Below are positions 14,749 to 39,702 of a stretch of 64,000 nucleotides of DNA, piece after piece; within the stretch, counting starts at the first letter, position 1; the number at the start of each line of letters is the position of its first letter. The notes beneath the pieces are model-generated. The model saw only the letters and a list, made by a program, of their open reading frames with translations. It searched no databases and was not told the DNA's origin. This stretch comes from a virus (lineage: Duplodnaviria > Caudoviricetes). The stretch lies in the IMG/VR virus record IMGVR_UViG_3300021091_000011; one strand, 5' to 3'. The position numbers and the translations under genes are program-made.

Positions 14749-15126
14749 ATGAACAAGATTTCTTCGCAAGACCGAAGCGCGCTGATCAAGTTGGCATCAA
14801 GTCTGCCCGCAGGCGACGAAACCCGTCGCGCGATTCTCGCAGGCTTGACCAAACTCGCCGCCCCCTACAAGCACGACAGCACCACCAGCGGTGGTAAGCG
14901 TTGCCGCAATCAATCCTGCGGCGGCGTCGGCGCACCGGGCAAAGGTTTATCCGAGTACGACCTGCTCGCAAACTACGGCGATCACGTCGGCACCGACCAC
15001 GATCCCCAAAAGAATATGGCGGGCTATATGCGTTGGTGGCGTGAAAACCAAGGTCAACACAAAGACCGCACCGTGAGCCCCACGGGTGCAGGCAACGAGA
15101 CTTTCAATCCTCAAAAGAAGAAGTAA
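14749..15126 (+). CDS. Leader-tagged small protein
   Basis: GCAGGAG RBS; MNKISSQDRSALIKLASSLPAGDETRRAILAGLTKLAA followed by an unrelated ~90-aa domain. Confidence 0.75.
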   Translation: MNKISSQDRSALIKLASSLPAGDETRRAILAGLTKLAAPYKHDSTTSGGKRCRNQSCGGVGAPGKGLSEYDLLANYGDHVGTDHDPQKNMAGYMRWWRENQGQHKDRTVSPTGAGNETFNPQKKK

Positions 15127-15269
15127 GTAAGTCTCCCCCCCTAGCCCTTAGAAAAGCCCTCTCGCTCGCGCAAGAGGGGCTTTTTTTATGCCCAAAAAGC
15201 GTATGATCACGCTATGCCTAGCAACACCGTCAGACTGATTCTCGGCGATAGCCTTGTCAAACTCAAAGA
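15061..15269. repeat. 209/210-bp direct repeat, copy 1
   Basis: Near-identical to 16599-16808; contains the 3' end of the 14749 gene, a terminator and the first 19 codons of the methyltransferase. Confidence 0.92.
15152..15187 (+). terminator. Rho-independent terminator
   Basis: AGCCCTCT-loop-AGAGGGGCT followed by T7. Confidence 0.8.
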
Positions 15270-15303
15270 TTTCTTAATCCGGCTATACCAATCTAACGCT
15301 TAG
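15214..15303 (+). pseudogene. Truncated start of the methyltransferase N-half
   Basis: MPSNTVRLILGDSLVKLKD is identical to the 16753 protein, then diverges and stops. Confidence 0.8.
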
Positions 15304-15325
15304 ATTATCTTGAAGGTGTATAGAC

Positions 15326-16441
15326 ATGAGCATGATTTCGCGGGTTGCGCAGAGATTCTTGCAGGCAGACGCAGTCAAAATTCATTGGTGGTTTCTTGAC
15401 GCGCATGAGGACCCGACCGTCAAACGTGCCGCAGAACGGCTATGGGGTTCCGTCGGTTCCGGGCTGGCTGAGATTGCCCCCATAAATGCGAGACTGCGGG
15501 CAATGAAACCCGAGGACGCGCACACGCCCAACGGTTTTCAGACGGTGCGCGCCGACGTGAGTCTCGTTACAAGTCCGCAAGTAGAGGGCGTCGCTTTGCA
15601 CTTGGATTTTTCTTTGGACGGCCGGACGGTCCTGTTCAACTCCAAGTTGAGAGTCAATCACCCGAAGTTTGCGGCTTTGCATGGTAAGAAAGCAACGCCG
15701 GCCAAGATTCTGTCAATTCTCTTTGCGGACTTCACGCAAAAGAAAGCCGAGTCCAATGCGTTTCAAGACGAACTCGACGCGGAATATGCACGGGTTCGGG
15801 CAAACTTTCAGACGCAAGCCGAGGACTTCGCCAAGTTTCTAGCCTTCCAGATTCCCACACTTCGGTCCAACGTCCCGGCGATTACCGGGAGTGTCAAGTC
15901 CGTCACGGCTTCCGAGAATGGCTTTTCGGTCGTGTCGGAGTTCAAGACCGCCACGGGCAAGCCTTATCAGATAGGGTGTGACGTCCGAAACGGAACGTTG
16001 CAAATCACACGTTCTGACGGTAAGCCCGGGTCTAAGTTCTCGATAGACTCCGGGGACACACGTTCAGTCGGCAACGCCGTCCATCATGTTTTGAGTGTGG
16101 CCCGTGGCATTGCCAGTAGTGAGAGTCAGGCGTCGGACAAGGTGACGGCTCTGATTCAAGCCACGCGGACGGAAAAGGGCGGGCGAAACCGTAAGGTTTC
16201 GTTTATTCCTGGGAAGACCCCGCGTTGGGACGTTCGACCGGACACGCCGAAGTCTTTGGACCATTACGGTCCTGACGGTTGGGACGAAGACGCGTGGACG
16301 GAAGAATACGCGGAGCCGATTGAGACGGCGGTGCTCGCCGAGTTAGACGCCGCTTTTGGACGCGGTATGTTCCACATCGACGTAGAAGAGAACGGTGATT
16401 TCACCGTTTACGCGACTCCGGCTGGTGCCCGACTGTTCTAG
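15326..16441 (+). CDS. Hypothetical protein with an N-terminal RVAQRFLQA tag, lying between the 209-bp direct repeats
   Basis: 371-aa ORF starting MSMISRVAQRFLQAD. Confidence 0.75.
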   Translation: MSMISRVAQRFLQADAVKIHWWFLDAHEDPTVKRAAERLWGSVGSGLAEIAPINARLRAMKPEDAHTPNGFQTVRADVSLVTSPQVEGVALHLDFSLDGRTVLFNSKLRVNHPKFAALHGKKATPAKILSILFADFTQKKAESNAFQDELDAEYARVRANFQTQAEDFAKFLAFQIPTLRSNVPAITGSVKSVTASENGFSVVSEFKTATGKPYQIGCDVRNGTLQITRSDGKPGSKFSIDSGDTRSVGNAVHHVLSVARGIASSESQASDKVTALIQATRTEKGGRNRKVSFIPGKTPRWDVRPDTPKSLDHYGPDGWDEDAWTEEYAEPIETAVLAELDAAFGRGMFHIDVEENGDFTVYATPAGARLF

Positions 16442-16598
16442 TCGACGAGCTTCTTGACGAGAGCCTCGATGCGGGCCGACAAATGGGTCCGCACGATTTC
16501 GTCCGTGGCCTTACGTCCCGAATCAAGAAATCCGTCGGGAGTATTTGAGACGAATCGAACGTCTTAATAACGCTCAGGCGGCGAGCGAGGCGGTCAAA

Positions 16599-16808
16599 AA
16601 AGACCGCACCGTGAGCCCCACGGGTGCAGGCAACGAGACTTTCAATCCTCAAAAGAAGAAGTAAGTAAGTCTCCCCCCCTAGCCCTTAGAAAAGCCCCTC
16701 TCGCTCGCGCAAGAGGGGCTTTTTTTATGCCCAAAAAGCGTATGATCACGCTATGCCTAGCAACACCGTTAGACTGATTCTCGGCGATAGCCTAGTCAAA
16801 CTCAAAGA
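16599..16808. repeat. 209/210-bp direct repeat, copy 2
   Basis: Matches 15061-15269 with a few substitutions and one extra C in the terminator stem. Confidence 0.92.
16689..16726 (+). terminator. Rho-independent terminator (duplicate)
   Basis: AGCCCCTCT-loop-AGAGGGGCT followed by a T-run. Confidence 0.8.
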
Positions 16809-17406
16809 CCTAGCGCCAAACTCAGTAGACGCCGTAGTTTCAGACCCACCCTATGAATTAACCGCTAACAAAAAAGGCGGCTCAGGGGTTGCCAGCATCA
16901 ATCTTGAAAGTCCATACGGACGTTCACGGATCGGAACGGGCAACGGCGGCGGCTTTATGGGTATGAAATGGGATTCGACCGGAATCGCCTTTTCACCCGA
17001 ACTTTGGGGCGAATGCTTTAGGATTCTAAAACCTAACGGCGTTATCAAAGCCTTTTCAGGCACGAGAACTTTTCACCGAATGACCCAAGCCCTGAAAAAA
17101 TCAGGATTCGTAGACTTTGAAATTCACGCTTGGACTTACGGCTCAGGCTTCCCGAAGTCTATGGACGTGAGCAAGCAGATCGACAAGGCGGCGGGCGCGG
17201 AGCGGGAAGTGGTGGGGCGTGTGGCAGGCATGGGTAAGCAAAACCCTGAATGGAACGGCACCGCACAAGGACGCGCTGAAAACTCGTTCAAGTCGGAATA
17301 TGATGCAACCGCACCCGCCACCGATGCCGCTCGGCAATGGTCCGGGTGGGGCACCGCTCTAAAGCCCGCTTGGGAACCAATCATCGTCGCAAGAAAGCCA
17401 ATATGA
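16753..17406 (+). CDS. N4/N6 DNA methyltransferase, N-terminal part (motif IV DPPY; no SAM-binding motif I)
   Basis: LILGDS, VDAVVSDPPY, FMGMKWD, ECFRILKPNG, WTYGSGFPKS, TALKPAWEPIIVARKPI. Confidence 0.88.
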   Translation: MPSNTVRLILGDSLVKLKDLAPNSVDAVVSDPPYELTANKKGGSGVASINLESPYGRSRIGTGNGGGFMGMKWDSTGIAFSPELWGECFRILKPNGVIKAFSGTRTFHRMTQALKKSGFVDFEIHAWTYGSGFPKSMDVSKQIDKAAGAEREVVGRVAGMGKQNPEWNGTAQGRAENSFKSEYDATAPATDAARQWSGWGTALKPAWEPIIVARKPI

Positions 17407-17489
17407 TCATCCACGTCTTGAGAAAGCCGTTGTCAGACACGGTCGCTCAAAACGCCTTGGCTCATGGAGCCGGAGCAAGGTGCCATTGA
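17403..17489 (+). pseudogene. Truncated copy of the methyltransferase second part
   Basis: MIIHVLRKPLSDTVAQNALAHGAGA, then interrupted at about 17478 by the inverted endonuclease remnant. Confidence 0.8.
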
Positions 17490-18074
17490 ATTCTAAAGCC
17501 GCCCCCATTTCAGGCAGGAAATAGTCTAGTACGGTCCCATAGCGACCATTTGGCCCCCGTAGATAATACTGATGTACGCAGGGCACACCTAGACGTTGAA
17601 GCACATCACCAACTTTCATTTCTAAGCCCGAGACGCGGGGTATACGGCCTTCCGCAATCGCCAAAGAAGTTGTCTGAGATAACTTGGCCTTGGTTTCTTC
17701 CGTGTGCTGATAGTTGCCCGCCGCCTTTCGGCGAACATTCATCTCACGTCGACGTTCGGCCTGCGCTTGTCGGGTAGCCTCTGGAATGATATAGGGCGTT
17801 TCTACTTTCCGACCTACCAAGCCCATCGAGCGAGCCTGATAGGAGCATTTGCGGGAGCATAAAAACGCCGTGGTCTTCGACCGAGCCACCACCGAAGGTG
17901 GTCTGGTTACAGGAGTGCCGCAAACTCCACAAGATTTTGCGATTGAGAGGGTGTTGCTCTGCCCCACAGGGCGTGAGAGCATTTACGAGAACAAGTCGTC
18001 TGCCGCCCATGTAATAAGCGGGTAGGGTCTGCTTGGTATAGGTCCCCGCAAACGGGGCAAAGTCGTTCAATCAC
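17478..18074 (-). pseudogene. Homing endonuclease remnant (Zn fingers + NUMOD3-like + Vsr/DUF559-like domain), frameshifted and truncated
   Basis: GTG at 18074 gives IERLCPVCGDLYQADPTRLLHGRQTTCSRKCS. A different frame carries CGVCG...FLCSRKCS, HTEETKAKLS and SGLEMKV...VLDYFLPEMGAALEFNGT, cut before the expected WH. Confidence 0.75.
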
Positions 18075-18123
18075 GAGGTCACCACCTATGACAAATGAGG
18101 GAAACGGTCGTAGGGAGGGTCAG

Positions 18124-18926
18124 ATGATTCGCTTGGTTTTAGGGGACTGCATCGAGAAAATGCAGGATATCCCCCCAGGAACCATTGATGCGATCATCAG
18201 CGACCCTCCCTACGGCTGAATATATCAGGACTAGAATTCATGGGGAAAGAATGGGACGCACCTTGGAAGTCAAACGGATGGCAAGCCGGAGGCGGGTTCT
18301 CTAAACCTGGTATTGGCGAACGCCATACCGCATGGCCTAGTTTCACCGCGACTTCTAAGTTCGGTGCCACAAATCCAACTTGTGAGACTTGTGGGGGACG
18401 TGCGCGAGGTAAAAAACGCTGCGGTTGCGCTGAACCACAATGGAAAGCCATCGGCAAACGCCGCCACGTCGAAAATGAAGGCTTACCGTCTGACGTTACG
18501 AGTTCAGGGATGAGTAATCACCTTCGCCACTTTCAAGATTGGTGCGAACTTTGGTCAAGCCAATGCTTTAGAATCCTAAAACCTAACGGCGTTATCAAAG
18601 CCTTTTCGGGGACACGAACTTTTCACCGTATGACCCAAGCCCTGAAAAAATCAGGATTCGTAGACTTTGAAATTCACGCTTGGACTTACGGATCAGGCTT
18701 CCCGAAGTCTATGGACGTGAGCAAGCAGATCGACAAGCAAGCGGGCGCAGAACGAACGGAAGTCATAAAGCCGTTCAATGACGAAAACGGTTGGAACGCG
18801 AACGGAACCACGGGCGACCACGCCTATACCGCACCCGCCACCGACGCCGCCCGTCAATGGTCCGGTTACGGCACCGCTCTAAAGCCCGCTTGGGAGCCGA
18901 TCATCGTCGCAAGAAAGCCAATATGA
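18124..18926 (+). CDS. Second methyltransferase N-terminal part, interrupted by a 14-nt insert just after DPPYG
   Basis: GGAGG RBS; MIRLVLGDCIEKMQDIPPGTIDAIISDPPYG, TGA at 18217; resumes LEFMGKEWD at 18231 and continues to ...EPIIVARKPI. Confidence 0.8.
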
Positions 18927-19381
18927 TCGTTCACGTCTTACGAAAGCCATTGTCAGGCACGGTCGCTCAAAACGCTTTGGCTCATGGAGCCGGAGCATTG
19001 AACATCGACGGATGCCGGATTGCTGTTTCTAGCGAAGAAAGAAAAACCTACGACGCCAATATGCGTGCGCTTGAACGGTACGCAGACGGCAGAGAAAAAA
19101 TCGGGCAGTTTGAGGGTGGCTGGAAAGCAGACCCGTCCCGTGTCAAAAACGTGGGCGCTCGCTGGCCCGCTAATCTCGTCCATGATGGAAGCGAGCACGC
19201 CCTAGATAATTTTCCCGAGGCGGGAAATGGATGGAAGAAAAATTACGGTGATGAAGTCTATGCCGTTGAAGGCCGTCATTATTCCGGAGGTTCTTTTGGC
19301 GGTGGTGGTTTTCTAGGGGGTAGCACTTATACGGACTCAGGCTCGGCATCTCGATTCTTTCAACAAGTGATAATCAAATGA
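18923..19381 (+). CDS. Methyltransferase second part, paralog A
   Basis: MIVHVLRKPLSGTVAQNALAHGAGALNIDGCRI...RWPANLVHDGS...GSASRFFQQV; ATGA overlap with the N-half. Confidence 0.8.
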   Translation: MIVHVLRKPLSGTVAQNALAHGAGALNIDGCRIAVSSEERKTYDANMRALERYADGREKIGQFEGGWKADPSRVKNVGARWPANLVHDGSEHALDNFPEAGNGWKKNYGDEVYAVEGRHYSGGSFGGGGFLGGSTYTDSGSASRFFQQVIIK

Positions 19382-19806
19382 TCGTTCACGTCCTGAGAAA
19401 GCCATTGTCAGGCACCGTCGCTCAAAACGCCCTGCAACACGGCTGCGGGGCATTGAACATCGACGGATGCAGGGTTAGTTTGTCTTCCGATGAAAATCCA
19501 GACAAGTTGAGCGCGAGAAGCGGTGGGAACCGTGGTTTTGCTGAAGATTATGTAGGCGGGGTAACACGAAATTTACCTGCTGGTTGGGATTGCAGCAAGG
19601 GGCGTTGGCCCGCGAATCTCGTCCATGATGGAAGCGACGAAGTTGTAGAGACGTTTCCTGAGAGCAACCGCTGGTTCAACGCACCGAGAAATAGCGATGG
19701 AAAAGGCAAAGACGGCCAGATTTTTGATACTCACCGTGGCAGCGGGATGGGTGGCGGCGACTCCGGTTCGGCATCTCGATTCTTTCAGCAAGTAACCCTC
19801 AAATAG
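19378..19806 (+). CDS. Methyltransferase second part, paralog B
   Basis: Same conserved blocks as paralog A with different variable segments; ATGA overlap. Confidence 0.8.
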   Translation: MIVHVLRKPLSGTVAQNALQHGCGALNIDGCRVSLSSDENPDKLSARSGGNRGFAEDYVGGVTRNLPAGWDCSKGRWPANLVHDGSDEVVETFPESNRWFNAPRNSDGKGKDGQIFDTHRGSGMGGGDSGSASRFFQQVTLK

Positions 19807-20111: not shown

Positions 20112-20630
20112 ATGATAGTGGTTATGAAGAAGAATCCTTTGATAGCCGCGAAGATTAAGTCTTTGGTGGGTGTGTTGAAGGGTGTGGGCGACAAGGCTAC
20201 GCGCGTGGCTTGTCTGCTTGGCGTGTTGTTGGGGGAGACGAGCGCGGAGGGTTTAGTCTCTTTGCGTGGTGAGGCTTCCCTTCTTCGCATACGTCGGGTG
20301 TATGGGAAGGTCTATGGTGCGGAGTTGGCCGACCATTTGGGTCGGTTGCTTCCGGAGGGCGACGTCCCTTGTCTATTGGGGCGTGGCGGCAAGGCGTTAT
20401 CCCGAGTGACGTTGTGGCGTCGCGTGGGGAAGATCGGCTTGGTGGGTCTGCGTCGTTTATCGTTGGCGTTTCGCAAGTTCTTTATGGAGCATTGCGAGAC
20501 GCGGGAAGAGGCGCGGGATTGTGCGTCGGGGACGGGCTTTGTGTTGGGCACGCCGACGTCTTGGGTTCGTGTGTACGCTTGGTGGCCTGACGCACCGGAT
20601 TGGTGTGGGCGGGTGAGGCGCTTTATATAA
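20112..20630 (+). CDS. Hypothetical protein (possible HTH)
   Basis: 172-aa ORF in G/T-rich sequence; LSRVTLWRRVGKIG is HTH-like. Confidence 0.45.
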   Translation: MIVVMKKNPLIAAKIKSLVGVLKGVGDKATRVACLLGVLLGETSAEGLVSLRGEASLLRIRRVYGKVYGAELADHLGRLLPEGDVPCLLGRGGKALSRVTLWRRVGKIGLVGLRRLSLAFRKFFMEHCETREEARDCASGTGFVLGTPTSWVRVYAWWPDAPDWCGRVRRFI

Positions 20631-20674
20631 GCGTGTTTGCGTCGTCGAAGCCGCTTGGAATGGGTGAGGGAGAT

Positions 20675-20953
20675 TCACGGGGCTTTGCTTCCGTGGCCGT
20701 AACCCTGACCGTGACCGCTGCCGTAACTGCCACCGTAGCCGTAACCGTGGCCGCTTCCGTCGCTGAAGCAGTCACCGTAGGCGCTTCTGTGCCAACGAGA
20801 ACGCTGCGGCGGCGGCGGCGACAACTCAAAGGCCGTGGTCAGCGGGACTTGAGCGAGTGCCTTACCCTTGGCGTCAATCAGACTAATCGAGCCGTCGAGA
20901 TTAGGCTTGACGTCAGACGCCGCTTGAAACGGTGGTGGGAGGCTTTTGATCAT
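20675..20953 (-). CDS. LPxPF-domain paralog with a Gly/Tyr-rich tail
   Basis: SLPPPFQAASDVKPNLDGSISLIDAKGKALAQVPLTTAFEL plus GSGHGYGYGG. Confidence 0.8.
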   Translation of the reverse strand: MIKSLPPPFQAASDVKPNLDGSISLIDAKGKALAQVPLTTAFELSPPPPQRSRWHRSAYGDCFSDGSGHGYGYGGSYGSGHGQGYGHGSKAP

Positions 20954-21348
20954 CTATATACGCCGTCGATTGAGGCTATTCCCCCATGGGTTTGGATCAG
21001 TTGTCTGAGGATTTCATGCGGCACATAGGCGTAGACGGTGTCCGTCGGGTCGTCTGAGTTTTCAGCGTAGGTTTGGATCAAGTCGTCAGGTTGATTGGGG
21101 AAGCCTAACTCATAATGAGTCCACGGCCCATGGTCCTTGCGGGGTCGGCAGTAGTGCGTTGCGCTGGCCCTTACGGAGACGGAGAACCCATCTTTGCAAG
21201 TGACCCGACCTTGATATAGGCCCAAATCTAAGGCCGTGTGCAGCGCAACTTGAGCGAGCGTCTTACCCTTGGCGTCGATCAGATCGAGTGAGCCCTGAGC
21301 GTTAGGCTTGATGCTCGTCGCGTCTTGAAACGGTGGGGGCAGTTTCAC
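20950..21348 (-). CDS. LPxPF-domain paralog fused to a different globular phage domain
   Basis: MKLPPPFQDATSIKPN...ALDL plus CKDGFSVSVRASATHYCRPR...ELGFP...YAE...PTDTVYAYVP. Confidence 0.8.
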   Translation of the reverse strand: MKLPPPFQDATSIKPNAQGSLDLIDAKGKTLAQVALHTALDLGLYQGRVTCKDGFSVSVRASATHYCRPRKDHGPWTHYELGFPNQPDDLIQTYAENSDDPTDTVYAYVPHEILRQLIQTHGGIASIDGVYR

Positions 21349-21575
21349 GGGCTTCTCCCACCGTCACCTTCGGACTGCTCATCACCGTAACCGCGTCCGT
21401 CACCGTAGCCACGTCCGTCACCGTAACCGTGGCCGTAGTCTTTTGTGCTCAACTCAAAGGCCGTGGTCAACGGGATTCGCGCCAACGGCTTGCCCTTGGC
21501 ATCGGTCAGGCTGATCGTCCCGTCGGGATTAGGCTTGAGGTTAGTCGCGGACTGAAACGGATGTGGTAGGTTCAT
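21345..21575 (-). CDS. LPxPF-domain paralog with a Gly-rich tail
   Basis: MNLPHPFQSATNLKPNPDG...TAFEL plus (GYGDGR)n. Confidence 0.8.
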   Translation of the reverse strand: MNLPHPFQSATNLKPNPDGTISLTDAKGKPLARIPLTTAFELSTKDYGHGYGDGRGYGDGRGYGDEQSEGDGGRSP

Positions 21576-21925
21576 TTGGGAACCTTGCCTCCGGAGCCGT
21601 TGCCGATTCCAAATGGGTCGTATCCGGCACCTGAGTTGCCATCAGCGAAGCGGCATTTAGCACCTAAAGCGTCGCTGTAGCCGTAGTTCAGCGAAGCGAA
21701 CAAAATGCCGCCGCCGAAAGGCATGATTTCAGATATGTTGGTCTTGTCGAGTAGCGAGTAGGCCGTGTTCAACGGCACGCGGGCAATCGGGAGGTCATTT
21801 TCGGTGGTCAGGTCGATTGTCCCATCGGCGTTTACGCGAATCCAGCGCACGTCTTGAAACGGACGTGGCAACGGCGACCGACTATGTGCAGGGTAGTGGA
21901 CGTTGTCTGAGATGTAACCGTTCAT
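21572..21925 (-). CDS. Divergent LPxPF-domain paralog
   Basis: SPLPRPFQDVRWIRVNADGTIDLTTENDLPIARVPLNTAYSL. Confidence 0.75.
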   Translation of the reverse strand: MNGYISDNVHYPAHSRSPLPRPFQDVRWIRVNADGTIDLTTENDLPIARVPLNTAYSLLDKTNISEIMPFGGGILFASLNYGYSDALGAKCRFADGNSGAGYDPFGIGNGSGGKVPK

Positions 21926-22248
21926 GGGGACTTGCCTTTGCCGCTTATGTAGCCTTGGCCGTAAGCGACTCCGATTCCGAATCCTTCGCCGTAGCCGATT
22001 CCGAATCCATCACCCGAACCGTCTCCGTGATCTTTGCCGTAAGTGCCGTAACCGAAATCTCCATCGCCGCTGCCATCGTTGCTTGGCTTGAAGTCGCACT
22101 CATCCTTGTCACCGAGCGGCGACAACTCAAAAGCCGTGGGCATCGAGATTCTTGCGAGCGGCTTCCCGCTCGCGTCGATTAGGTCGATTGAGCCGTCGAG
22201 ATTAGGTTTGAGACCCGTCGCGGACTGAAACGGTGGGGGCAGTTTCAC
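21922..22248 (-). CDS. LPxPF-domain paralog with a Gly/Asp-rich tail
   Basis: MKLPPPFQSATGLKPNLDG...TAFEL plus GSGDGDFGYG repeats. Confidence 0.8.
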   Translation of the reverse strand: MKLPPPFQSATGLKPNLDGSIDLIDASGKPLARISMPTAFELSPLGDKDECDFKPSNDGSGDGDFGYGTYGKDHGDGSGDGFGIGYGEGFGIGVAYGQGYISGKGKSP

Positions 22249-22604
22249 GGGCTTCTCCCATTAGCCCTATGGGAACGCTTGCCGTAACCGTCACCGTCAC
22301 CGTGACCGTCACCGTAACAACCGATACCGCGACCGTGACCGTCACCGCGACCGTTGCCGCGACCGTCACCGTAACAACCGTAGCCGTAACCGTCACCGTA
22401 GCCGAGGCCGTAACCGTCGCTGTAGCCGAGGCCGTAACCGTGACCGTCACCGGAACCGTAGCCTGCGGCCTCGGGACTTAGATCAAAAGCCGTGGTCAAC
22501 GGGATTCGCGCCAACGGCTTGCCCTTGGCATCGGTCAGGCTAACCGTCCCGTCGGCATTGGGCTTGATGCTAGATGCGTCTTGGAACGGATGGGGCAGTT
22601 TCAC
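22245..22604 (-). CDS. LPxPF-domain paralog with a long GYGDG tail
   Basis: GTG start at 22604 after AGGAG: MKLPHPFQDASSIKPNADG...TAFDL plus (GYG/GDG)n. Confidence 0.8.
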   Translation of the reverse strand: MKLPHPFQDASSIKPNADGTVSLTDAKGKPLARIPLTTAFDLSPEAAGYGSGDGHGYGLGYSDGYGLGYGDGYGYGCYGDGRGNGRGDGHGRGIGCYGDGHGDGDGYGKRSHRANGRSP

Positions 22605-22621
22605 GGAGTTCAGTCTCCTGA

Positions 22622-23098
22622 TCAATCATCAATGTCTTCGGAGATGTCGAATGCCTCGATGATCTCGTCAGGCAGGTCTCCGTGTGAGGTCACGGTATAC
22701 TGTTGGTCCTCGCCGTGCCCAAAGATTCCGGCGAAAGCCATGCCAGGTTCATAGTAGAGCCCTCTGACGTCGAAACCGAGCTTGATTAGGTGTTGGTAGA
22801 ACGCGATTGGGGGCGACCAGGCCGTGAAAAACTTAGCCGTAATCTCTCCGTGGACGGAGGCAGTCACGGAACCCTCATCTATGTCCCATTTCGTGCCCCA
22901 ATTGTCACAGCACCAATCATAACTGTCCCTAGCACCGTACTTAGCGAGGTTTTGCTCGGCAGACTGACCCTCCAATTCAGGGGGGCATGGCAGGAACTCG
23001 TGGAACAGTTCGTTGCGACTTAGGGCTTTCTCGGCGCGGGTTAGTTCGTCCACGGACTCGTGCTTCAGCGTCAGGTGGTTCATACACCAATTGGGCAT
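22622..23098 (-). CDS. DUF1281/YubB ferredoxin-like phage protein
   Basis: MPNWCMNHL...YDWCCDNWGTKWD...FFTAWSPP...YYEPGMAFAG. Confidence 0.8.
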   Translation of the reverse strand: MPNWCMNHLTLKHESVDELTRAEKALSRNELFHEFLPCPPELEGQSAEQNLAKYGARDSYDWCCDNWGTKWDIDEGSVTASVHGEITAKFFTAWSPPIAFYQHLIKLGFDVRGLYYEPGMAFAGIFGHGEDQQYTVTSHGDLPDEIIEAFDISEDIDD

Positions 23099-23149
23099 GG
23101 TCTAACTCTTCTTTCTATGGGCTGATCTTGGTTGTCACAAACACTCGGG

Positions 23150-23587
23150 CTATCTGTCGAGGCCAGGTTCGAGTGGGGCAAATTCACGTTCTCCCCCCAC
23201 CGTCAACGTCACCGTAACCGACACCGGAACCACCGGAACCACCGTGACAGTCGCCGTAACCGTCGCCCTTCTCCCACCGTCACCGTTGGGCAGCCCGTCA
23301 CCGTAACAACCGTAGCCGTAACCGTCACCGTAGCCGAGGCCGTAACCGTAGCCGTAGCTGTCGCTGTAACCGTCGCCGTCGCCGTCGCCGGAACCGTCGC
23401 CGCAACCGTAGTCGGAACCGTAGCCGTAACCGTAGCCTGCGGCCTCGGGACTTAGCTCAAAGGCCGTGGTCAACGGGATTCGCGCCAACGGCTTGCCCTT
23501 GGCATCGGTCAGGCTAACCGTCCCGTCGGCATCGGGCTTGAGGCCCGTCGCCGCTCGAAACGGATGAGGGAGGTTTAGGCGTCCCAC
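23150..23587 (-). CDS. LPxPF-domain paralog whose 3' end is a frameshifted fusion
   Basis: LNLPHPFRAATGLKPDADG...TAFEL plus a GYG tail; after GDGGR the frame reads Val/Thr while the Gly-rich reading continues in another frame. Confidence 0.65.
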   Translation of the reverse strand: MGRLNLPHPFRAATGLKPDADGTVSLTDAKGKPLARIPLTTAFELSPEAAGYGYGYGSDYGCGDGSGDGDGDGYSDSYGYGYGLGYGDGYGYGCYGDGLPNGDGGRRATVTATVTVVPVVPVSVTVTLTVGGEREFAPLEPGLDR

Positions 23588-23907
23588 AAGCCGGACTCCC
23601 ACGCCGCCGCCGCTTGAGGCGTGCAAGCCAGCAGCCCCGTTATGTCCGTGTATTGCGCCATAGGCGCGGGAGGCGAAATCCTCGACCCCTGCAAAGGCCC
23701 CGTGTACGCAAGGCCGACGAACCCCCGCACTTCGGCGGGCCAATAGACCACCACTCTGCAGTCCTTGAGCGTGATGGTCGACGGGTTCTTGGTCGTGGTC
23801 CCGTCCGGACTCACGACCTCAGTAGCGAGGTTGTACGAGACAACCTCACCGAAGAAAACGCCGCGATGGGCGGTCGTGACGACGACCTTCTGACCGACAA
23901 AGTTCAT
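23575..23907 (-). CDS. DUF6948-like protein
   Basis: GQKVVVTTAHRGVFFG...ITLKDCRVVVYW...GFVGLAYTGP...SRIS...LLACTPQAAAAW. Confidence 0.7.
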   Translation of the reverse strand: MNFVGQKVVVTTAHRGVFFGEVVSYNLATEVVSPDGTTTKNPSTITLKDCRVVVYWPAEVRGFVGLAYTGPLQGSRISPPAPMAQYTDITGLLACTPQAAAAWESGLWDA

Positions 23908-29377: not shown

Positions 29378-29935
29378 ATGAGCCTTAGTATCTCACTTAA
29401 CTCTAGTGCTGCGAAGTCCGGTATCTCTGGACCGCTTTGGTTTGCGTTTAGTCGAGAATTCGGCTTGGCTTTGGCTTCATGGTTGAACGCGAGTGCCTAC
29501 GGCTATTCGCCTCTTGGTATTGCGCCTCCGGCTCCGTCTCCGATTTCAGTAACGGGCTCGGGTCGATTGCAGACGTTTCGTGTGAGGTCACCTTCTGGCG
29601 TCAGTTCGGGACCTTTGGGCGTGAACACGGAGCGTGCGATTCTGGATGCGTTGGTTTTCGTGCCAATGGTTTTGAAGCCTCTAGGTTCTGGTTCGGGCTC
29701 TGGTGTGAGTCCTATATTGCCTTCGGGTAGTTTCCGTTCGAGTCTTGGTCCGTTGGGTGGTTATCTGGTCGCGCGTGTGGGGACGTTATCTGGTCCTGTT
29801 GGCAAGTCTTGGCTTTTGGATTTCGGTACTCGTCTGGAATCAGGTATGTCGTTTGTGGGTACTGCGACGGTGATTTCTCAAGTGCCTGTCCCCGTCCCCG
29901 TGATCGTATCTGTGGGGGTGATATGTCCTTTGTGA
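29378..29935 (+). CDS. Hypothetical (probably structural) protein
   Basis: 185-aa Gly/Ser/Pro-rich ORF heading the structural operon. Confidence 0.55.
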   Translation: MSLSISLNSSAAKSGISGPLWFAFSREFGLALASWLNASAYGYSPLGIAPPAPSPISVTGSGRLQTFRVRSPSGVSSGPLGVNTERAILDALVFVPMVLKPLGSGSGSGVSPILPSGSFRSSLGPLGGYLVARVGTLSGPVGKSWLLDFGTRLESGMSFVGTATVISQVPVPVPVIVSVGVICPL

Positions 29936-32900
29936 TTAGCGGGTCTGGTGATCTATCTGGTGCGGTGGTCTGTGTGCCGAGCATCTGGATTAGACTTGGT
30001 GATCCTTGGACGAGGGTTTGTCCTCAACCTGCGAACGCGGTCAATCTTTTTGCATCAGCCGCCGTGAACAATAGCAATAGTGCGGTCACTCTCACGCCTC
30101 GTGCGGTCGACTTGTATCATTGGGTTGAATCTGGCGTTGAGGTTAGAAATGTCGGCGCGATTAAGCCTTCTGGCAACGTCATACCGAGTGGGTTTGCTGT
30201 TGGCGATCAACTGCCTGATTACTTTCTTTTGGGTTTGGGCGGTGTGAGTGTTGATTGCGAGTTAGTGAGTAACAATCCCGGTGGCTTAACGCCTAATAGG
30301 GCTTACCTAAACATTAACAACGGCGAGTTTTACTTAGGCGCGGGCTTGATACTCGAAACTTTGCAGTACGGCCTAGACACCGTGCAGAGTTTAGTGGTTG
30401 GGGGGGATAACAAGGCCCGAGTTTGGGTGAATACGCTGCGTGTTGGCTTGGGTTTGGTTTTGTCTGACTGTATCTACGGCGTGTTAAACTGCCGTCTAGT
30501 AATCTCTGACTCAGACTTGCCTTTGCCTGCTGGTATTAGCCCGACTGAGTTTTACTTATCGCTTGCTTCGGGCTTGTGTGTATTTTCTTCGGTTTATATT
30601 TCTGGTCGTGTGCTGAAAATCTTGGGCGTGGGCGTTTCTAGTAATCCCGTGCCGAATGTTCGTCATGTAGTATTGAATGCGAACGGTCGTGGACAGGTTC
30701 CCGCAGCCGATTCGTTGACCTTGTGGCCGTCGAACTTAGCGGGTTGGTCGCGTGGGCCGATTACGGCGGTTGGCGATAGACCTTCGGCGTGGGGTGTTGT
30801 TACTGAGAATTCGGGCGAGTTGTTTATCGTGGGCAAGCGTGATTTGCTTGCGATTGTCGAGTATGACTCGGACTTGCCGACGCAGGGTTACGGTTTGAAT
30901 CGTGAGCGGGGGTATTACTCGCTTGAGTCTGGTGCTTTGCAGGTTCGTTCGGGTGTGGGCAACGAAGTTGTTGATTTCAAGTGTGGGTTAGTGCCTGTTG
31001 GTTTTGAGGCTCCTGTTGGCGTCGTCAGTTTAGTGGGTTTGCTTCGTGGTCCGTTTGACTTGAGCGGCGAGACATTTGTTTTCGCGCTTGACGGCGTTGT
31101 GACGTCATTTACGTTGCCGATTGGTAGATATACTTCGGGTCAGTTGGCCGTGTTGCTTAATGCGGCCTCTGGTGTTCCGAATGCGTGGTTTGATTTAGCG
31201 GGTGGTTTGGCTTGCGTAGCGAACGCGAGCATTGAGATTGGTTGGGGCGACGCTCGTATTGGTTTCGCGCAGGGTTGGATTGTCACGTCGGGCGCGCGTT
31301 GGAATTCTTACAACGGCTTGGCGATGGGCTTATATCGTCAGGTGGGCGAGGGGGATTTGACCGTCCGTTTGTACGGCGAGGTGGACGATGAGATTCTGGT
31401 CGAGAAGATCGGCGAATCTTCGTTGGTCTATTTGGGTCAAGGTTTTCCGGACGCGCTGCAATCTGGTTATGAGCCCGATGGTTTCTTTGAGATTGTGGGT
31501 TCCAACGGCTTGATTTCGCAGCCGTTGTCGGGTCGTCCGACGGCGGGCGTTTTCACGAGTTCGTGGGGCGTGGGTTTGCTTTTAGATTGCGTGGAGCGCA
31601 ATCGTTTCTCGTGGGTCGAGCGTTTTGAGACGGGGTCTATTTCAGTAGACAACGGCGTGGATCAAATCACGCTCGACGGCTTGGGCGTGATTTCACTTAC
31701 TCTTGAGGTCCAAGAGCCGAATTTGCCGTGGTTGCCGCAGGAGTATGTTCTCGTCGGCAACACGGCGTTGTTTTCATCGCGCATCGGCGCGGATTTACTA
31801 TCGGGCGGCGTGGGCGAGTCTGTATCTGGCGTTTTCACGGACGTCACGATTGCTGATTTCACAGTTGCAAACGTGAACGTCGGTGACTTGCTGGTGACGA
31901 GCGATAATCTCGTCTATCGAATCATCAGCGTCGCGGCGGGTGCGTTGGGTTTATATCCGAGTGATTCGTTCGGGCTTGTGGGTTGGCAGGTTTTAGATAC
32001 CGAGCCTGTTGGTTTAGCCGTGTACGATCCGGCTTTGATTGCCGACAGGCAGTTTTTACAGTTGCCGACGTGGGACGGTGGTGATCCGTTTGCGATTCGG
32101 GTGATTACGCCGTTATCGGGCGCGACGGCGAATCTTTCTAAGCCCTATGCGAAGTCGCTCCGTTACGGTGCTGTGGACGCGGGCAATAGTGCTTTGGACT
32201 TGCTTGTGCGTGGCGTGAGCATGGGCGCTTTGTCCTCGCAGATGCAGATGCCTGCTTTTGTTTTGTCAGACCCGCATTACACGACGAGTACGGCGGGTGG
32301 TTTTTACTTCAGCCTTCGTGTGCCGACGGCTGTGATCGTGATTACGTCGGCCTTCACGGTGCCTTCGCCGCCGCTTGGCGTGATCGAAGTCGGCCTATTC
32401 GGTTCGGGCATCAGCGGCCAAGTGCGTGTCGCATCGAACTTAGTGACGGCCTATGCTGATTTATTGGTCTACTACGATCAAGAGTTCTTGCCCGCTGGCG
32501 TGATCGTGAACGCCGAGGGCGATATAGCGACGGGTGCATTGAACATTCCGACGGCGTATGCGGGCGAGTCGTTGTTCTTGGTCGAGAAATACACGTCGGA
32601 TTCGGTGACGGTGAGCCCTGTTCCGGGCACGGCGTTTTTTCAGACGCCGATTGAGCCGAGGCAATACGTTGAGGCGACGTATTACCCGACGAACTCGGGT
32701 GGTGTGAATAAGACGGGCGACTTGATTGTCGAGTTCATGCCCATTTCGATTCGATTGGAGGAAGCGACGCGCATCAATGCGCGGCTTTACAGTTTCAATC
32801 CATCGGGCTTGGCGTATGACTCTGCTTCGGAGCCGATGATTTGGGTCGGTGCCGAGATGCAGAATTACTCGGGCAATCTTACTGCTACTGTAAACGGTGC

Positions 32901-35900
32901 ATTGTCGCAGATAGCCTTTACTTACGACGTGCCCATAACGTCGAAGGTTCAGATTACCTACTCGGTGCTCAACGCGCCTTTGGGCACGGCTTCTCAGTCG
33001 TATCAGGTCACGCAGGCTCCGGTGTGGCAACCGCCGTTCTGGTTGAACGCGGGTCAATCGGTGTTTGTGTTGGAGGGTGATCGTACTGCGACGGTCGCGC
33101 CGGATCATTTGATCGGCGTGGGCGGGAAATACGTCGCTTATGTGCAGGGCGTCACGTTATTGCCGAGCGGCGATACGCAGGTCGAGATTTACCCCGCGCC
33201 TGTGCGCGAAGTCGGTTCACGTTCGCCCGGCGTAGATCAAGGCTTGGTGATCACGGATCGTAATGTAACGGACGTGGACTTTATTCAGGTCGTCCCGAAC
33301 GCATTTCTCGGTGCGGGCGTTGGCGCGAGCCTGATTCAGTTTTACGGCGATGCGAGGTCAATCATCGCGCCGAGGCATTTGATTGACCTCGACGGCGTTC
33401 CGTATCTAGTCCAGAACGTCCAACTCACGAGCGATGGGCGCAAGACCGTCGCTTACCTGCAAATTCCTTTGCAGCGTGACGTGGCCGAGGGGTCAGTCGT
33501 CAAGTGCTCTTTTAGGCCCATTTACCAGAATCAGCCCATAGATTTCACTATCTCGGGCACGCAGATTACGGGCACGAGTTTCACGGCTATTTTATTCTCG
33601 TCTGATTCTTCGATTCCTGGCAAAGTTCTAGTCCCGAATACCCAATACGTCGTCGAAAACGGCGCGCTCAAGTTTCAGACGCAGTTTCAGACGCCTTTGC
33701 AGCCGAATGAACGGTTGTACGCGAGTTACACGAAAAGCAAGGTGATTTCGCCGACGATGATTGACGATGCTTTGGTCGTGCCGAAGTATCGTGCGACGTA
33801 CTTGGCGATTACGCAGCCTTCGGACGCAAATGGTCTGTTGGGCGGCGTGTTGAAAGGCAAGTATTTCTATCTCGACGCTGAATCGTTCACGCTGAAGATT
33901 CAGCCGATTGCCGACTACTTGCCCATAGTATTACTCGACGCGGCACGTCGTCCCGAGAATCCCGATGATACGGCCACCCCGACGCCTTTCCCGCAAGGCG
34001 GCGCGGTGACTGTGCAGAAGCAGGCCGAGAATGCGCGCAACGCCTATTGGGATGCCTTGAATCTCGATGCGGGTGGGCGCGTGTTCGTCACGCTGTTTAA
34101 CAACGCCGTGACGCCCTTCGAGCAAGTGCTTGAGACCATCGACGGTCGCGTCATCGGTGACCGCGATGGCAAACTGCGGTTGTATGTCGGTCCCGAGTCC
34201 GTCACGCCTATTGCGGGCGGTGTTTATGCGCTCACGTCGCATTTGTACCCGCGCGTCGTATGGCGTGATTTGTTGGAAGCGTGGTCGCCGAATACGTCCG
34301 GCTGGTTCTTCATGCCCGACGACTTTATCTATGACCCTCGCTCTATCACGTTGGGCGTAAATCCGGGCTCTTTGAACGGTTACCCGCCTTCCGGCCCTGA
34401 TCTGGATTTCTTCATTGACTTGCAGCGCGAGTATCAGCGCAACGACGTAGACGACGTTCTAATGACGTCGTTCAAGCGCAACGTAACGCTCGCTAACACG
34501 CTATTGCCCGTCATTACGTTCAAGGGCCGCTTCGAAAGTGCGTGGCAACCTAACGCATTCTCACGGCTCTATCCCGAGCAGACGCGCTATTTCACGCGGC
34601 TATTGCCGGGCCTTGAGGCGCAGATTGACGCTAACACGGGCGAAGTAATCGACGCAGGCTTTTACTCAGCCGGACGGCTGCTGCCCGTCGCTGGTACTCA
34701 GCCCGGAACGACAGTTAACAAGGTCGTCAAAACGCGCAACACGGTCATCGGGCAAATCTCGAACCCCGTCTTGGGCGAACTCAAGAACGTATCTGATATC
34801 ACGGCCAATGACCGTGGACCTCGTGCGCGCGTGTGGGCCTATTATCCGAACGGCAACGCCGCTTTAGATGCCGCACTTGCTTTGGCGACGCCGACGGTTG
34901 GCCGCGCTACGCTGGTGTTGACGCCTCAGACGATTAACGACTTCGTGATAGATCAAATCACGGGCTTTCCGGACACGAGCCTGCTGGTCACGAATGGCGG
35001 CGCGAATCCTGACGTGAACTCAGGTGATGCCGAACTGTCTACGCCGGAGTTTGCCTCCGGCGATCAGATTCTCTTGGGCAATCCCGACGGCACGGTTCGA
35101 ACCGTTTACTTGCCCGCATCCGGCCTTGGCGCTGCCGAGAATCCCGTGTTCGTGGACGATATTCAGGCCGGATGCGTAGTCTTCCTGAAGGATTTGAACA
35201 ATAGTGCCCTTTCGGGCGCGCAGATTTTTATGTCGGACCCCATATCAGGTGGCGGCATTAGTTTTGATCCGACGCAGGGCGACACGATCTTCACGCCGAC
35301 GTCGCAAGCGGCGATTGCACCCAATCTTGTGAGTGATCCGGTGAGCCTCGCGGACGCCGCGAAGTTGATTGAGACGAACGGCGACTATCGAATTCAGAAT
35401 GACCTCAAGGTGCGCCGCAGGACGGGGCAGATTCTCGACGCCAGCCTGCCCGTCGTAGAGGACATTTGGGGGCTTCCGATTCAAGATTGGGCGGGTCAAA
35501 ACCCGCCGCTTCCGGGCTCTTGCATCGAAGGCACGGCTGATATTATCAACGCCGACTCGGAACCCGCCCGATTGCCCGCGCTCTTTGGCGGCACTCGTGA
35601 CGATTCCGGCGATAATCAGATTCCGTTTTTGGCGTTGGGCAACACGGAAATTCGGCTACTGCAACAAGCCTCGCGTTTGTTTGACGGCTTGTTTCTGGAC
35701 TCAGCGGCACCCGTTCAAGCGGTGTACCCCGATGAGATCGCGGTGTCCGATGGCGTGATTTACGGTGCGGTGACGGGTGGCTTGGAACCTGCGACGCTTT
35801 ACACGGCGACGGCGAACTTCACGCCTGTTTTCGTGGCGGGCTCTGGTGTCGGCCCCGCGCGCCAACGTGATTTCTTGCTTGTGCAGACCGGACAATCGCC

Positions 35901-39654: not shown

Positions 39655-39702
39655 TGCGGCTATCTAGTTGCGCTTGCGTAGCATTTACAAGAGGCCCATC
39701 GT

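Follow-up and report, generated by a model that had tools for sequence, protein, structure and literature searches.

Organisation of the interrupted methyltransferase gene

The window analysed in this study, a stretch of 64,000 nucleotides (nt) of phage DNA, forms part of a contig of about 204 kb and contains a DNA methyltransferase gene in which the reading frame breaks at the catalytic motif DPPYG. The locus consists of three tandem units of about 1.5 kb each, and the features at and around the break are as follows.

16753-17406, plus strand: uninterrupted paralogous gene for the N-terminal half of a methyltransferase (DPPYE type) in the preceding tandem unit, with a downstream piece that the cassette described below has cut short
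17449-18074, minus strand: predicted Vsr-like homing-endonuclease gene, a pseudogene in the window (GTG start at 18074, 1-nt deletion near 17965, C-terminal ~55 codons lost left of ~17475)
18088-18216, plus strand: N-terminal methyltransferase open reading frame (N-ORF), 43 codons from ATG 18088 or 31 from ATG 18124, ending in DPPYG
18214-18216, plus strand: GGC, which encodes the Gly of DPPYG and is proposed as the take-off codon (38/38 variants have a Gly codon at this place)
18217-18230, plus strand: 14-nt coding gap, made up of the stop codon TGA (18217-18219), a G-free, AU-rich spacer (18220-18227) and the proposed landing codon GGA (18228-18230)
18231-18926, plus strand: resumed ORF, LEFMGKEWD...WEPIIVARKPI, 231 codons plus stop, with ATG 18240 as an alternative restart codon
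18923-19381, plus strand: methyltransferase piece that follows at a natural split, MIVHVLRKPLSG...SRFFQQV, target-recognition-like, joined by an ATGA stop/start overlap (phrog_3008 DNA methyltransferase)
19378-19806, plus strand: second, paralogous copy of the SRFFQQV piece

Along the plus strand the window reads ATG(18124)...GAC CCT CCC TAC GGC TGA ATATATCA GGA CTA GAA TTC ATG(18240). The upstream ORF ends with GAC CCT CCC TAC and the GGC at 18214-18216, the TGA at 18217-18219 opens a run of 14 nt, TGAATATATCAGGA (18217-18230), and the sequence continues with CTA GAA TTC ATG(18240) GGG AAA GAA TGG GAC. An initial annotation of this DNA had described a 14-nt insert after DPPYG that starts with a stop codon, ends in GGA after a GGC take-off codon and leaves an intact downstream part, and each of these points was borne out. 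When the 14 nt were deleted in silico, the resulting DPPYG-LEFMGKEWD was the junction of 77-79 intact relatives, essentially all of those fetched; these uninterrupted alleles came mostly from IMG/VR phage contigs. Both Gly codons were seen, and they are not identical. The downstream ORF lies in the -1 frame and is open from 18231 back through the gap and on to 18926; across the gap this frame reads LNISGLEF, and frame-0 read-through past the TGA meets a TAG after four codons.

Both pieces correspond to the N-terminal (motif IV) half of a beta-class N6/N4 DNA methyltransferase, with DPPYG encoded at 18202-18216. They match PHROG DNA methyltransferase families, and a match to PF01555 covers profile positions 26-90 (E 2e-5) at 24.9 bits, just below the cut-off of 26.7. 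The AdoMet-binding motif I module (HPTxKP...DPFxGSG) was found in no frame of the 64-kb window, and tblastx of the window against the AdoMet modules of the related loci L018, L019 and L015 gave no match; this module may lie elsewhere on the ~204-kb contig.

Conservation of the insert in related loci

Exact-flank pattern scans for the 14-mer returned no match in viral, metagenome or genome collections, and it was protein look-ups, together with less strict gap patterns, that yielded the related loci. Among the closest homologues of the 228-aa ORF that begins at ATG 18240 are proteins that also start with MGKEWD or MGKDWD; on their contigs the same 43-codon ORF and its stop codon recur, along with a 14-nt insert. 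A search with the 43-aa peptide gave nine clusters, each of exactly 43 aa, from dozens of contigs and different studies. Conservation in homologs had been put forward as a check of the insert, and we recovered it, always 14 nt long, in at least 12 haplotypes that came from a large number of freshwater metagenomes. The loci L001-L017 and L100-L104 have an insert of this length. The variants follow the pattern TGA[A/C]TATA[T/C][C/T][A/T]GGA, in which the stop codon, TATA and GGA are invariant; elsewhere the insert drifts about as fast as synonymous sites of the adjoining ORF.

The window's own version of the insert was recovered, with no indel, in the contigs of three lake-water metagenome DNA runs. 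A metatranscriptome contig from a sister haplotype (a single contig of low depth, for which DNA carry-over is possible) spans 18173-18323 and retains the insert. Since an insert of the same length occurs in L001-L017, in L100-L104 and in the three metagenome runs, we conclude from these alignments that it is neither an assembly error nor a chance mutation.

A mobile cassette with a Vsr-like endonuclease gene

The minus-strand gene beside the N-ORF has its start 139 nt upstream of the junction. The extra C that the window copy has lost through its 1-nt deletion is present in a sister haplotype, and intact orthologues of 260 aa were found in L001, L003, L010 and L016. The encoded protein comprises two N-terminal zinc ribbons, a NUMOD3-like helix and a C-terminal nuclease domain, of which the residues E152, D184, E195 and H202 are invariant in 35 homologues. 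Pfam and PDB sequence searches with this protein gave no match, and a PHROGs search matched phrog_3339 'homing endonuclease' (E 3e-11). Its AlphaFold (AF2) model reached a pLDDT of 92, and Foldseek aligned it with Vsr (1cw0_A, E 1.9e-4) and with I-Bth0305I (3r3p, TM 0.69 normalised by target). As modelled, the cassette protein has a Vsr/PD-(D/E)XK-like catalytic fold.

In tblastn searches, for which only full-length queries were counted, an endonuclease gene was detected within 1.2 kb of 25 out of 48 interrupted junctions and of none of the 68 intact ones. A further 58 endonuclease matches beside intact junctions were rejected as an artefact of the chimaeric queries P0135 and P0141, which match the antisense of the methyltransferase gene. 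L018 was the sole intact allele with a cassette-type N-terminus, and no endonuclease gene is present there. The endonuclease gene is thus never found beside an uninterrupted DPPYG-LEF target.

Comparatively, the window and L010, L007 and L009 are 97.4% identical over 719 nt to the left, a segment that takes in the endonuclease gene, the N-ORF and the insert, and 81.7% identical to the right, with the change setting in as soon as the insert ends. For the window against L001, pS is 0.00 in the N-ORF and 0.33 in the downstream ORF. The cassette enters diverged methyltransferase genes as one unit, with its right border at the insert; as read from these comparisons, its parts are a divergent Vsr-like endonuclease gene, the insert, and a segment that replaces the 5' end of the methyltransferase gene. 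Apart from its dead endonuclease gene, the window cassette is 97-100% identical to copies in which this gene is intact. It is important to note that the conclusions of this study rest largely on the family of gaps described below, of which the window cassette is one such 97-100% identical member.

As a separate observation, the ATACCA/TATA conserved in the spacer may represent a -10-like box that belongs to the minus-strand endonuclease gene. A sigma-70 scan of 17300-19000, which is blind to an extended -10-like box, found no full promoter.

Selection on the two halves of interrupted genes

The two halves of the interrupted genes stay under purifying selection for a long time, even after loss of the endonuclease gene. 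Among cassette haplotypes the N-ORF shows a dN/dS of 0.1-0.4 at pS values of up to 0.45 and retains the LGDC and DPPYG positions; since this ORF always travels with the cassette, it reports evolution after the insertion. The downstream ORF is full length and ends in the WEP..RKP terminus in every interrupted locus with enough sequence, including those that lack an endonuclease gene. More than 30 distinct interrupted alleles with full-length downstream ORFs were counted, many of them without an endonuclease gene. Purifying selection on the N-ORF, together with the full-length downstream ORFs, suggests that a decaying pseudogene is unlikely at the level of the family. An insert that was unique, with relaxed selection on the flanking codons, had been named as evidence against decoding of the gap; what we found is a conserved family in which both flanking ORFs are under purifying selection.

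A family of short gaps at the same codon

We scanned for gaps of 4-34 nt of any sequence between DPPY and LEFMG, and also with a looser pattern that left the resume codons free. Both scans together disclosed about 45 distinct junctions, all at the same codon, in widely diverged phage methyltransferase genes. The gaps measured 5, 6, 7, 8, 10, 11, 12, 13, 14, 15 or 16 nt and fell in all three phases, on which ground a frameshift was rejected. Their layout is a Gly codon, a stop codon, a G-free spacer and a Gly codon, with both flanking ORFs intact. A stop codon (TGA, TAG or TAA) directly follows GGN in all 38 parsed gaps, and a second Gly codon (GGN) stands at the end of the gap in 33 of them; the other five end in AGC (twice), CGC, GAC or GTG. 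Gaps that do not shift the frame also keep the stop and the second Gly codon, as in GGC TAG GGT, GGT TGA GGC and GGA TAG TAC CAC GGC, and in one independent design a Leu codon is duplicated around the stop instead (Leu-stop-Leu, GGG CTT TGA CTG).

The take-off and landing codons form same-tRNA pairs in 17/38 gaps and Y/A cross pairs in 16/38, and across the family their wobble bases match no better than chance. In the window, GGC and GGA agree in their first two bases, are not wobble partners of one tRNA-Gly and share no tRNA-Gly. The spacers contain only 2 G in 194 nt, compared with 33% G in the flanks, and none has a GG; being without GG and nearly without G, they would offer no premature landing sites. 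The 9 nt from the landing codon to the ATG are constant in length and always encode a family-typical [L/I/Y]-x-F, and this held equally in the scan that left the resume codons unconstrained.

Gaps of 5-8 nt mostly lack an endonuclease gene. Those of 10-16 nt with an ATACCA-like core mostly do have one, at a distance of 133-140 nt. Shine-Dalgarno strength before the internal ATG shows no gain in interrupted alleles (-3.35 kcal/mol, compared with -3.32 kcal/mol in intact ones), and the short-gap variants lack such strength altogether. A full-text literature search found no description of these methyltransferase gaps.

A conserved helix upstream of the gap

Interrupted alleles share a predicted helix, the arms of which lie in the window as follows.

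18105-18121, plus strand: 5' arm, CGGUCGUAGGGAGGGUC, overlapping a GGGAGGG Shine-Dalgarno-like run; covariation on 19 sequences
18202-18218, plus strand: 3' arm, running over the DPPY codons and the take-off GGC into the stop codon, of which it takes in the first two bases

Across the family this helix measures 13-17 bp, with the DPPY and take-off codons pairing with an upstream segment; more precisely, the DPPY codons and the first G of the take-off codon pair with the complementary C-GTAGGGNGGRTC. For the short-gap class, this partner segment is found 6 nt upstream, where a hairpin results and an Asp to Gly change is forced in the conserved SVDxIVT motif; the G-U pairs of this hairpin class point to RNA of methyltransferase sense. 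In the window's class the complement lies exactly 80 nt upstream, and the 17-bp helix of the window (18105-18121 with 18202-18218) dominates the minimum free energy (MFE) fold, with z = -5.8.

The helix cells were paired in 94-96% of cases, compared with 38-54% in slid controls, and none of 500 shuffles reached the observed score. Compensatory changes were noticed at the Pro and Asp wobble positions, and the wobble position of the first Pro shows all four pair types. In the 77 intact alleles the best complement within 200 nt typically matched at 8-9 of 12 positions; only two alleles reached 11 of 12, and none had a complete complement. By these structural predictions and alignments, the helix is conserved, covarying and specific to interrupted alleles.

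Two signals that the initial annotation had read in this stretch have to be revised. Its small 4-bp hairpin within the gap, CTGA pairing with TCAG, does not hold up as a signal, with z = -0.04 relative to shuffles and with pairs that are broken without compensation in sister haplotypes. The run that it took for a strong GGAGG ribosome-binding site of the 31-codon ORF is indeed present, but it also serves as the 5' arm of the conserved helix, and in relatives it forms codons (RREGQ) of the longer N-terminal ORF.

Discussion

With reference to these observations, we propose that the 14 nt constitute a homing-endonuclease immunity insert that is decoded by a 14-nt translational hop from GGC to GGA, a reading to which the sequence comparisons give, in our estimation, about an even chance. 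The insert would split the recognition site of the endonuclease within the most conserved stretch of the gene and, by analogy with T4 MobA/gene 60, would thereby make its carrier immune to its own endonuclease as well as to related ones. During translation, peptidyl-tRNA-Gly would sit on GGC 18214-18216 with the slow-to-decode UGA in the A site; the ribosome would slide 14 nt over the G-free spacer, re-pair on GGA 18228-18230 and resume at CUA, and the product would be a scarless DPPYG-LEFMGKEWD. The helix may take part in this hopping: re-forming as the mRNA leaves the ribosome, its 13-17 bp would drive the forward slide, and after a slide of 14 nt the whole 3' arm would be outside the ribosome. 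The broader proposal, that phage methyltransferase genes hold a large natural family of hops of 5-16 nt, from the GGN before a stop to the next GGN, often with unmatched wobble bases, helix-driven and spread through endonuclease immunity, we regard as plausible at slightly under an even chance. Translational bypass had already been suggested for this gene as one possibility among several, and the comparative data favour it over the alternatives listed with it, with a restart at ATG 18240 persisting as a live rival. The suggestion of a mobile-element footprint is right in that the insert belongs to an endonuclease cassette, but the insert appears to be a functional part of this cassette and not a scar.

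A hop would explain why the stop directly follows the take-off codon, why this codon is duplicated after the gap (the Leu case included) and why the spacer is free of G; it would also explain the fixed, coding-like 9 nt before the ATG, the occurrence of gaps in all three phases and the scarless product. Several observations weigh against it. The take-off GGC and the landing GGA are read by different tRNA-Gly, same-tRNA pairs being restricted to 17/38 in the family, and the landing codon is not Gly in 5/38. The conservation of ATACCA/TATA in the spacer may reflect the minus-strand -10-like box. The right flank was possibly re-acquired from intact recipients at each homing event, which would weaken the argument drawn from the conserved LEF and landing codon. 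The helix would be of just as much use to a post-termination ribosome on its way forward to ATG 18240. The window lacks the AdoMet-binding module, and enzyme activity is here only presumed.

The alternative that deserves the most attention, though less likely in our view than the hop, is that of a split gene, in which translation terminates at the UGA and re-initiates 21 nt downstream at ATG 18240, so that a catalytic-loop peptide of 31 or 43 aa and a protein of 228 aa, without Leu-Glu-Phe, assemble non-covalently. A stop and a nearby in-family ATG are always present, the window has an AGGA 9 nt before ATG 18240, and the methyltransferase is in any case naturally split again downstream, at the ATGA overlap at 18923. 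Genes that were split by endonucleases and whose pieces re-associate are known, such as T4 gp39/gp60 and Aeh1 NrdA (bioRxiv 10.1101/2022.08.31.505936). The five of 38 variants without a Gly landing codon still have intact ORFs, and the helix could block backward scanning after termination. However, a split gene leaves unexplained why the codon that precedes the stop recurs beyond the gap, in the independent Leu-stop-Leu design too, why the spacer is purged of G, and why the 9 nt before the ATG are constant in length and still make coding sense. Even where the gap leaves the frame unchanged (6, 12 or 15 nt), a stop and a second Gly codon are retained; Shine-Dalgarno strength does not rise in interrupted alleles and is nil in the short-gap variants; and a conserved Phe would be missing from the enzyme.

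An inactivating insertion, in which the cassette kills this methyltransferase copy, the loss is tolerated through other methyltransferases and the flanks appear intact because the invasion is recent, seems improbable to us. It would fit the decayed endonuclease gene and the tandem 1.5-kb rearrangement of the window, the uninterrupted paralogue at 16753-17406, the missing AdoMet-binding module and the recombinant right flank, but it is at odds with the dN/dS of 0.1-0.4 at pS up to 0.45 in the cassette-borne N-ORF, with the more than 30 interrupted alleles that have full-length downstream ORFs, and with the constraint on the stop, the landing codon and the helix. Very improbable are other ways of handling the gap, namely a -1 (or +2) frameshift that adds LNISG, read-through of the stop, excision from the RNA, or a subpopulation of DNA without the insert. 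The -1 frame is open across the gap (LNISGLEF), and the run data are contigs, so minor insert-less DNA variants are possible. A slippery site is absent, most of the substitutions in the spacer are non-synonymous when read in the -1 frame, and frame-0 read-through meets the TAG after four codons; the metatranscriptome contig keeps the insert, subject to possible DNA carry-over, and the contigs of all three DNA runs carry it.

To our knowledge, natural programmed bypassing is restricted to very few systems, which are T4 gene 60 and its relatives, the yeast mitochondrial byps and the Hau3 candidate. The locus studied here resembles the T4 mobA/gene 60 cassette in that a free-standing endonuclease gene, a replacement segment and a short untranslated insert travel together; in that the insert sits in the most conserved codons of a gene for an essential-type enzyme; in that a Gly take-off codon, an immediate stop, an AU-rich gap without premature landing triplets and a Gly landing codon by the resume codon follow one another; and in that the gap often outlasts the endonuclease gene, which decays or is lost. 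Bypass in the T4 cassette gives protection from the endonuclease, and in some copies VSR endonucleases have taken the place of MobA (bioRxiv 10.1101/2022.08.31.505936); the same report, in a passage citing Bonocora et al. 2011, states that the insert breaks the target of the endonuclease. For gene 60, pairing of the mRNA on exit from the ribosome has been proposed as a forward driver (bioRxiv 10.1101/2024.12.09.627546). The two systems differ in that the gap measures 14 nt here (5-16 nt in the family) and 50 nt in gene 60, the host gene encodes a DNA methyltransferase and not a topoisomerase, and the endonuclease is Vsr-like and not HNH. Gene 60 has a take-off stem-loop within the gap, whereas here a covarying helix with an upstream arm takes its place. 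Unlike in the gene 60 homologues, take-off and landing codons here often share no tRNA.

Synthetic stop-hops work in E. coli, and a 2016 review of recoding knew of no natural case (PMC5009743). As that review summarises the work of Weiss et al. 1987, a stop lies between matched or near-matched codons and re-pairing of the peptidyl-tRNA occurs a few nt further on, and exactly this layout is displayed by the 5- and 6-nt members of the family (GGC UAG GC, GGC UAG GGU and CUU UGA CUG). The synthetic cases, as described there, are engineered and of low efficiency, whereas the layout reported here occurs in nature and is conserved, with a linked mobile element and an accompanying helix. The terminase inserts of Streptomyces phage Hau3 likewise involve gaps of about 10 nt, a proposed bypass, a slow A-site codon and nearby RNA structure, and the 10-nt bypass is supported by a junction peptide seen in E. 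coli (PMC10732093). In Hau3 the trigger is a rare UUA sense codon with a regulatory role and no homing endonuclease is involved, and both the gene and the host are different. With I-Bth0305I and the Vsr-like (EDxHD) endonucleases, the cassette protein shares the C-terminal fold, the invariant acidic and His residues and a position beside its presumed target in phage DNA; unlike I-Bth0305I, it is free-standing, divergently transcribed and not intron-encoded, and it is a predicted endonuclease whose gene is a pseudogene in the window.

If the proposed hop is true, cassettes that combine an endonuclease with bypass would have arisen a second time, independently, and the family would be the first class of stop-hops known from nature. 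It would also show that 'endonuclease plus bypass' is a general way for selfish elements to enter essential conserved codons with the gene kept alive. A real family would amount to a ready-made mutational series, with gaps of 5-16 nt, all three stop codons, matched and unmatched Gly pairs and two helix architectures, and this natural series could test the drivers of take-off, sliding and landing. At present, gene callers render such genes as fragments of 43 aa and about 230 aa or as pseudogenes, so the methylation capacity of phages would be under-counted.

The Gap, its Helix and the Spacer

Among the short-gap alleles of the hairpin class, in which the 5' arm of the helix lies 6 nt upstream of the DPPY codons, it was observed that Gly stands in place of the conserved Asp of SVDxIVTDPPY, giving SVGxVxCDPPY and encoding the 5' arm GTAGGG. 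As this Asp-to-Gly swap, which was recorded in L106, L109, L110, L113-L115, L129, L131, L136, L141, L149, L150 and L152, serves to encode the arm, the RNA helix overrides a conserved protein position.

The conservation of the spacer could also have a cause that is independent of translation. Its reverse complement on the minus strand (window 18219-18227) reads TGATATATT, similar to an extended -10 box (TGnTATAAT), and faces the start of the Vsr-like endonuclease gene at a distance of 139 nt. The TAT..T element (reverse complement of ATACCA/ATATA) is kept in all endonuclease-linked long gaps and is missing from short gaps without the endonuclease gene, and we regard the box, from its sequence, as a candidate for such a cause.

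Among the uninterrupted alleles, only the one at L018:1669-2514 has an N-terminus of the cassette type (MNGHREIRLVLGDCSEKMQDIP...DPPYGLEF); the endonuclease gene is absent there, and the 5' arm is 9 nt shorter and complementary only in part. This could be the host allele in its ancestral form, or else an allele restored by precise reversion. At two further loci, L121:2507 and L112:8290, the junctions carry only 4 extra bases each (TAC-TAAT-GGC and TAT-TTAG-GGC, respectively), with a stop but without a preceding Gly codon. The layout for a Gly-to-Gly ribosome hop is not matched, and these junctions may have decayed or may use another route.

Methyltransferase Pieces in the Window

The cassette copy belongs to a tandem array and comes after the complete paralogue in unit order:

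15061-18130, three tandem units of about 1.52-1.55 kb
15061 and 16599, exact repeat of 99 nt
15214-15303, truncated methyltransferase 5' end
16753-17406, paralogous N-half gene, complete and uninterrupted, of DPPYE type

Two genes for the N-half lie in the window, along with two or three pieces of target-recognition-like type; the AdoMet-binding module of a PF01555 enzyme (HPTxKP...DPFxGSG) was found nowhere in window 1-64000, and at the sister locus L019 it forms a separate ORF of 304 aa.

A second methyltransferase split, which is family-wide, was noticed at 18895-18965, where the N-half ends in ARKPI-TGA and the following ORF begins ATG-ATC... (MIVHVLRKPLSG), with an ATGA overlap between them. 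A 29-nt stretch at this split is flanked on both sides by duplicated RKP codons, and the N-half ends in ...RKPx in all relatives.

Other Regions

On the minus strand, 20600-23750 harbors at least six small paralogous ORFs of one family. In each, the N-domain is conserved (PPFQ.AT.LKPN.DGSIDLIDA.GK.LA) and precedes Gly-Tyr/Gly-Asp repeats that vary and are made from 12-nt units. Two giant plus-strand ORFs of 3281 and 1769 codons occupy 29809-45012, a region with strong GC and AT skew.
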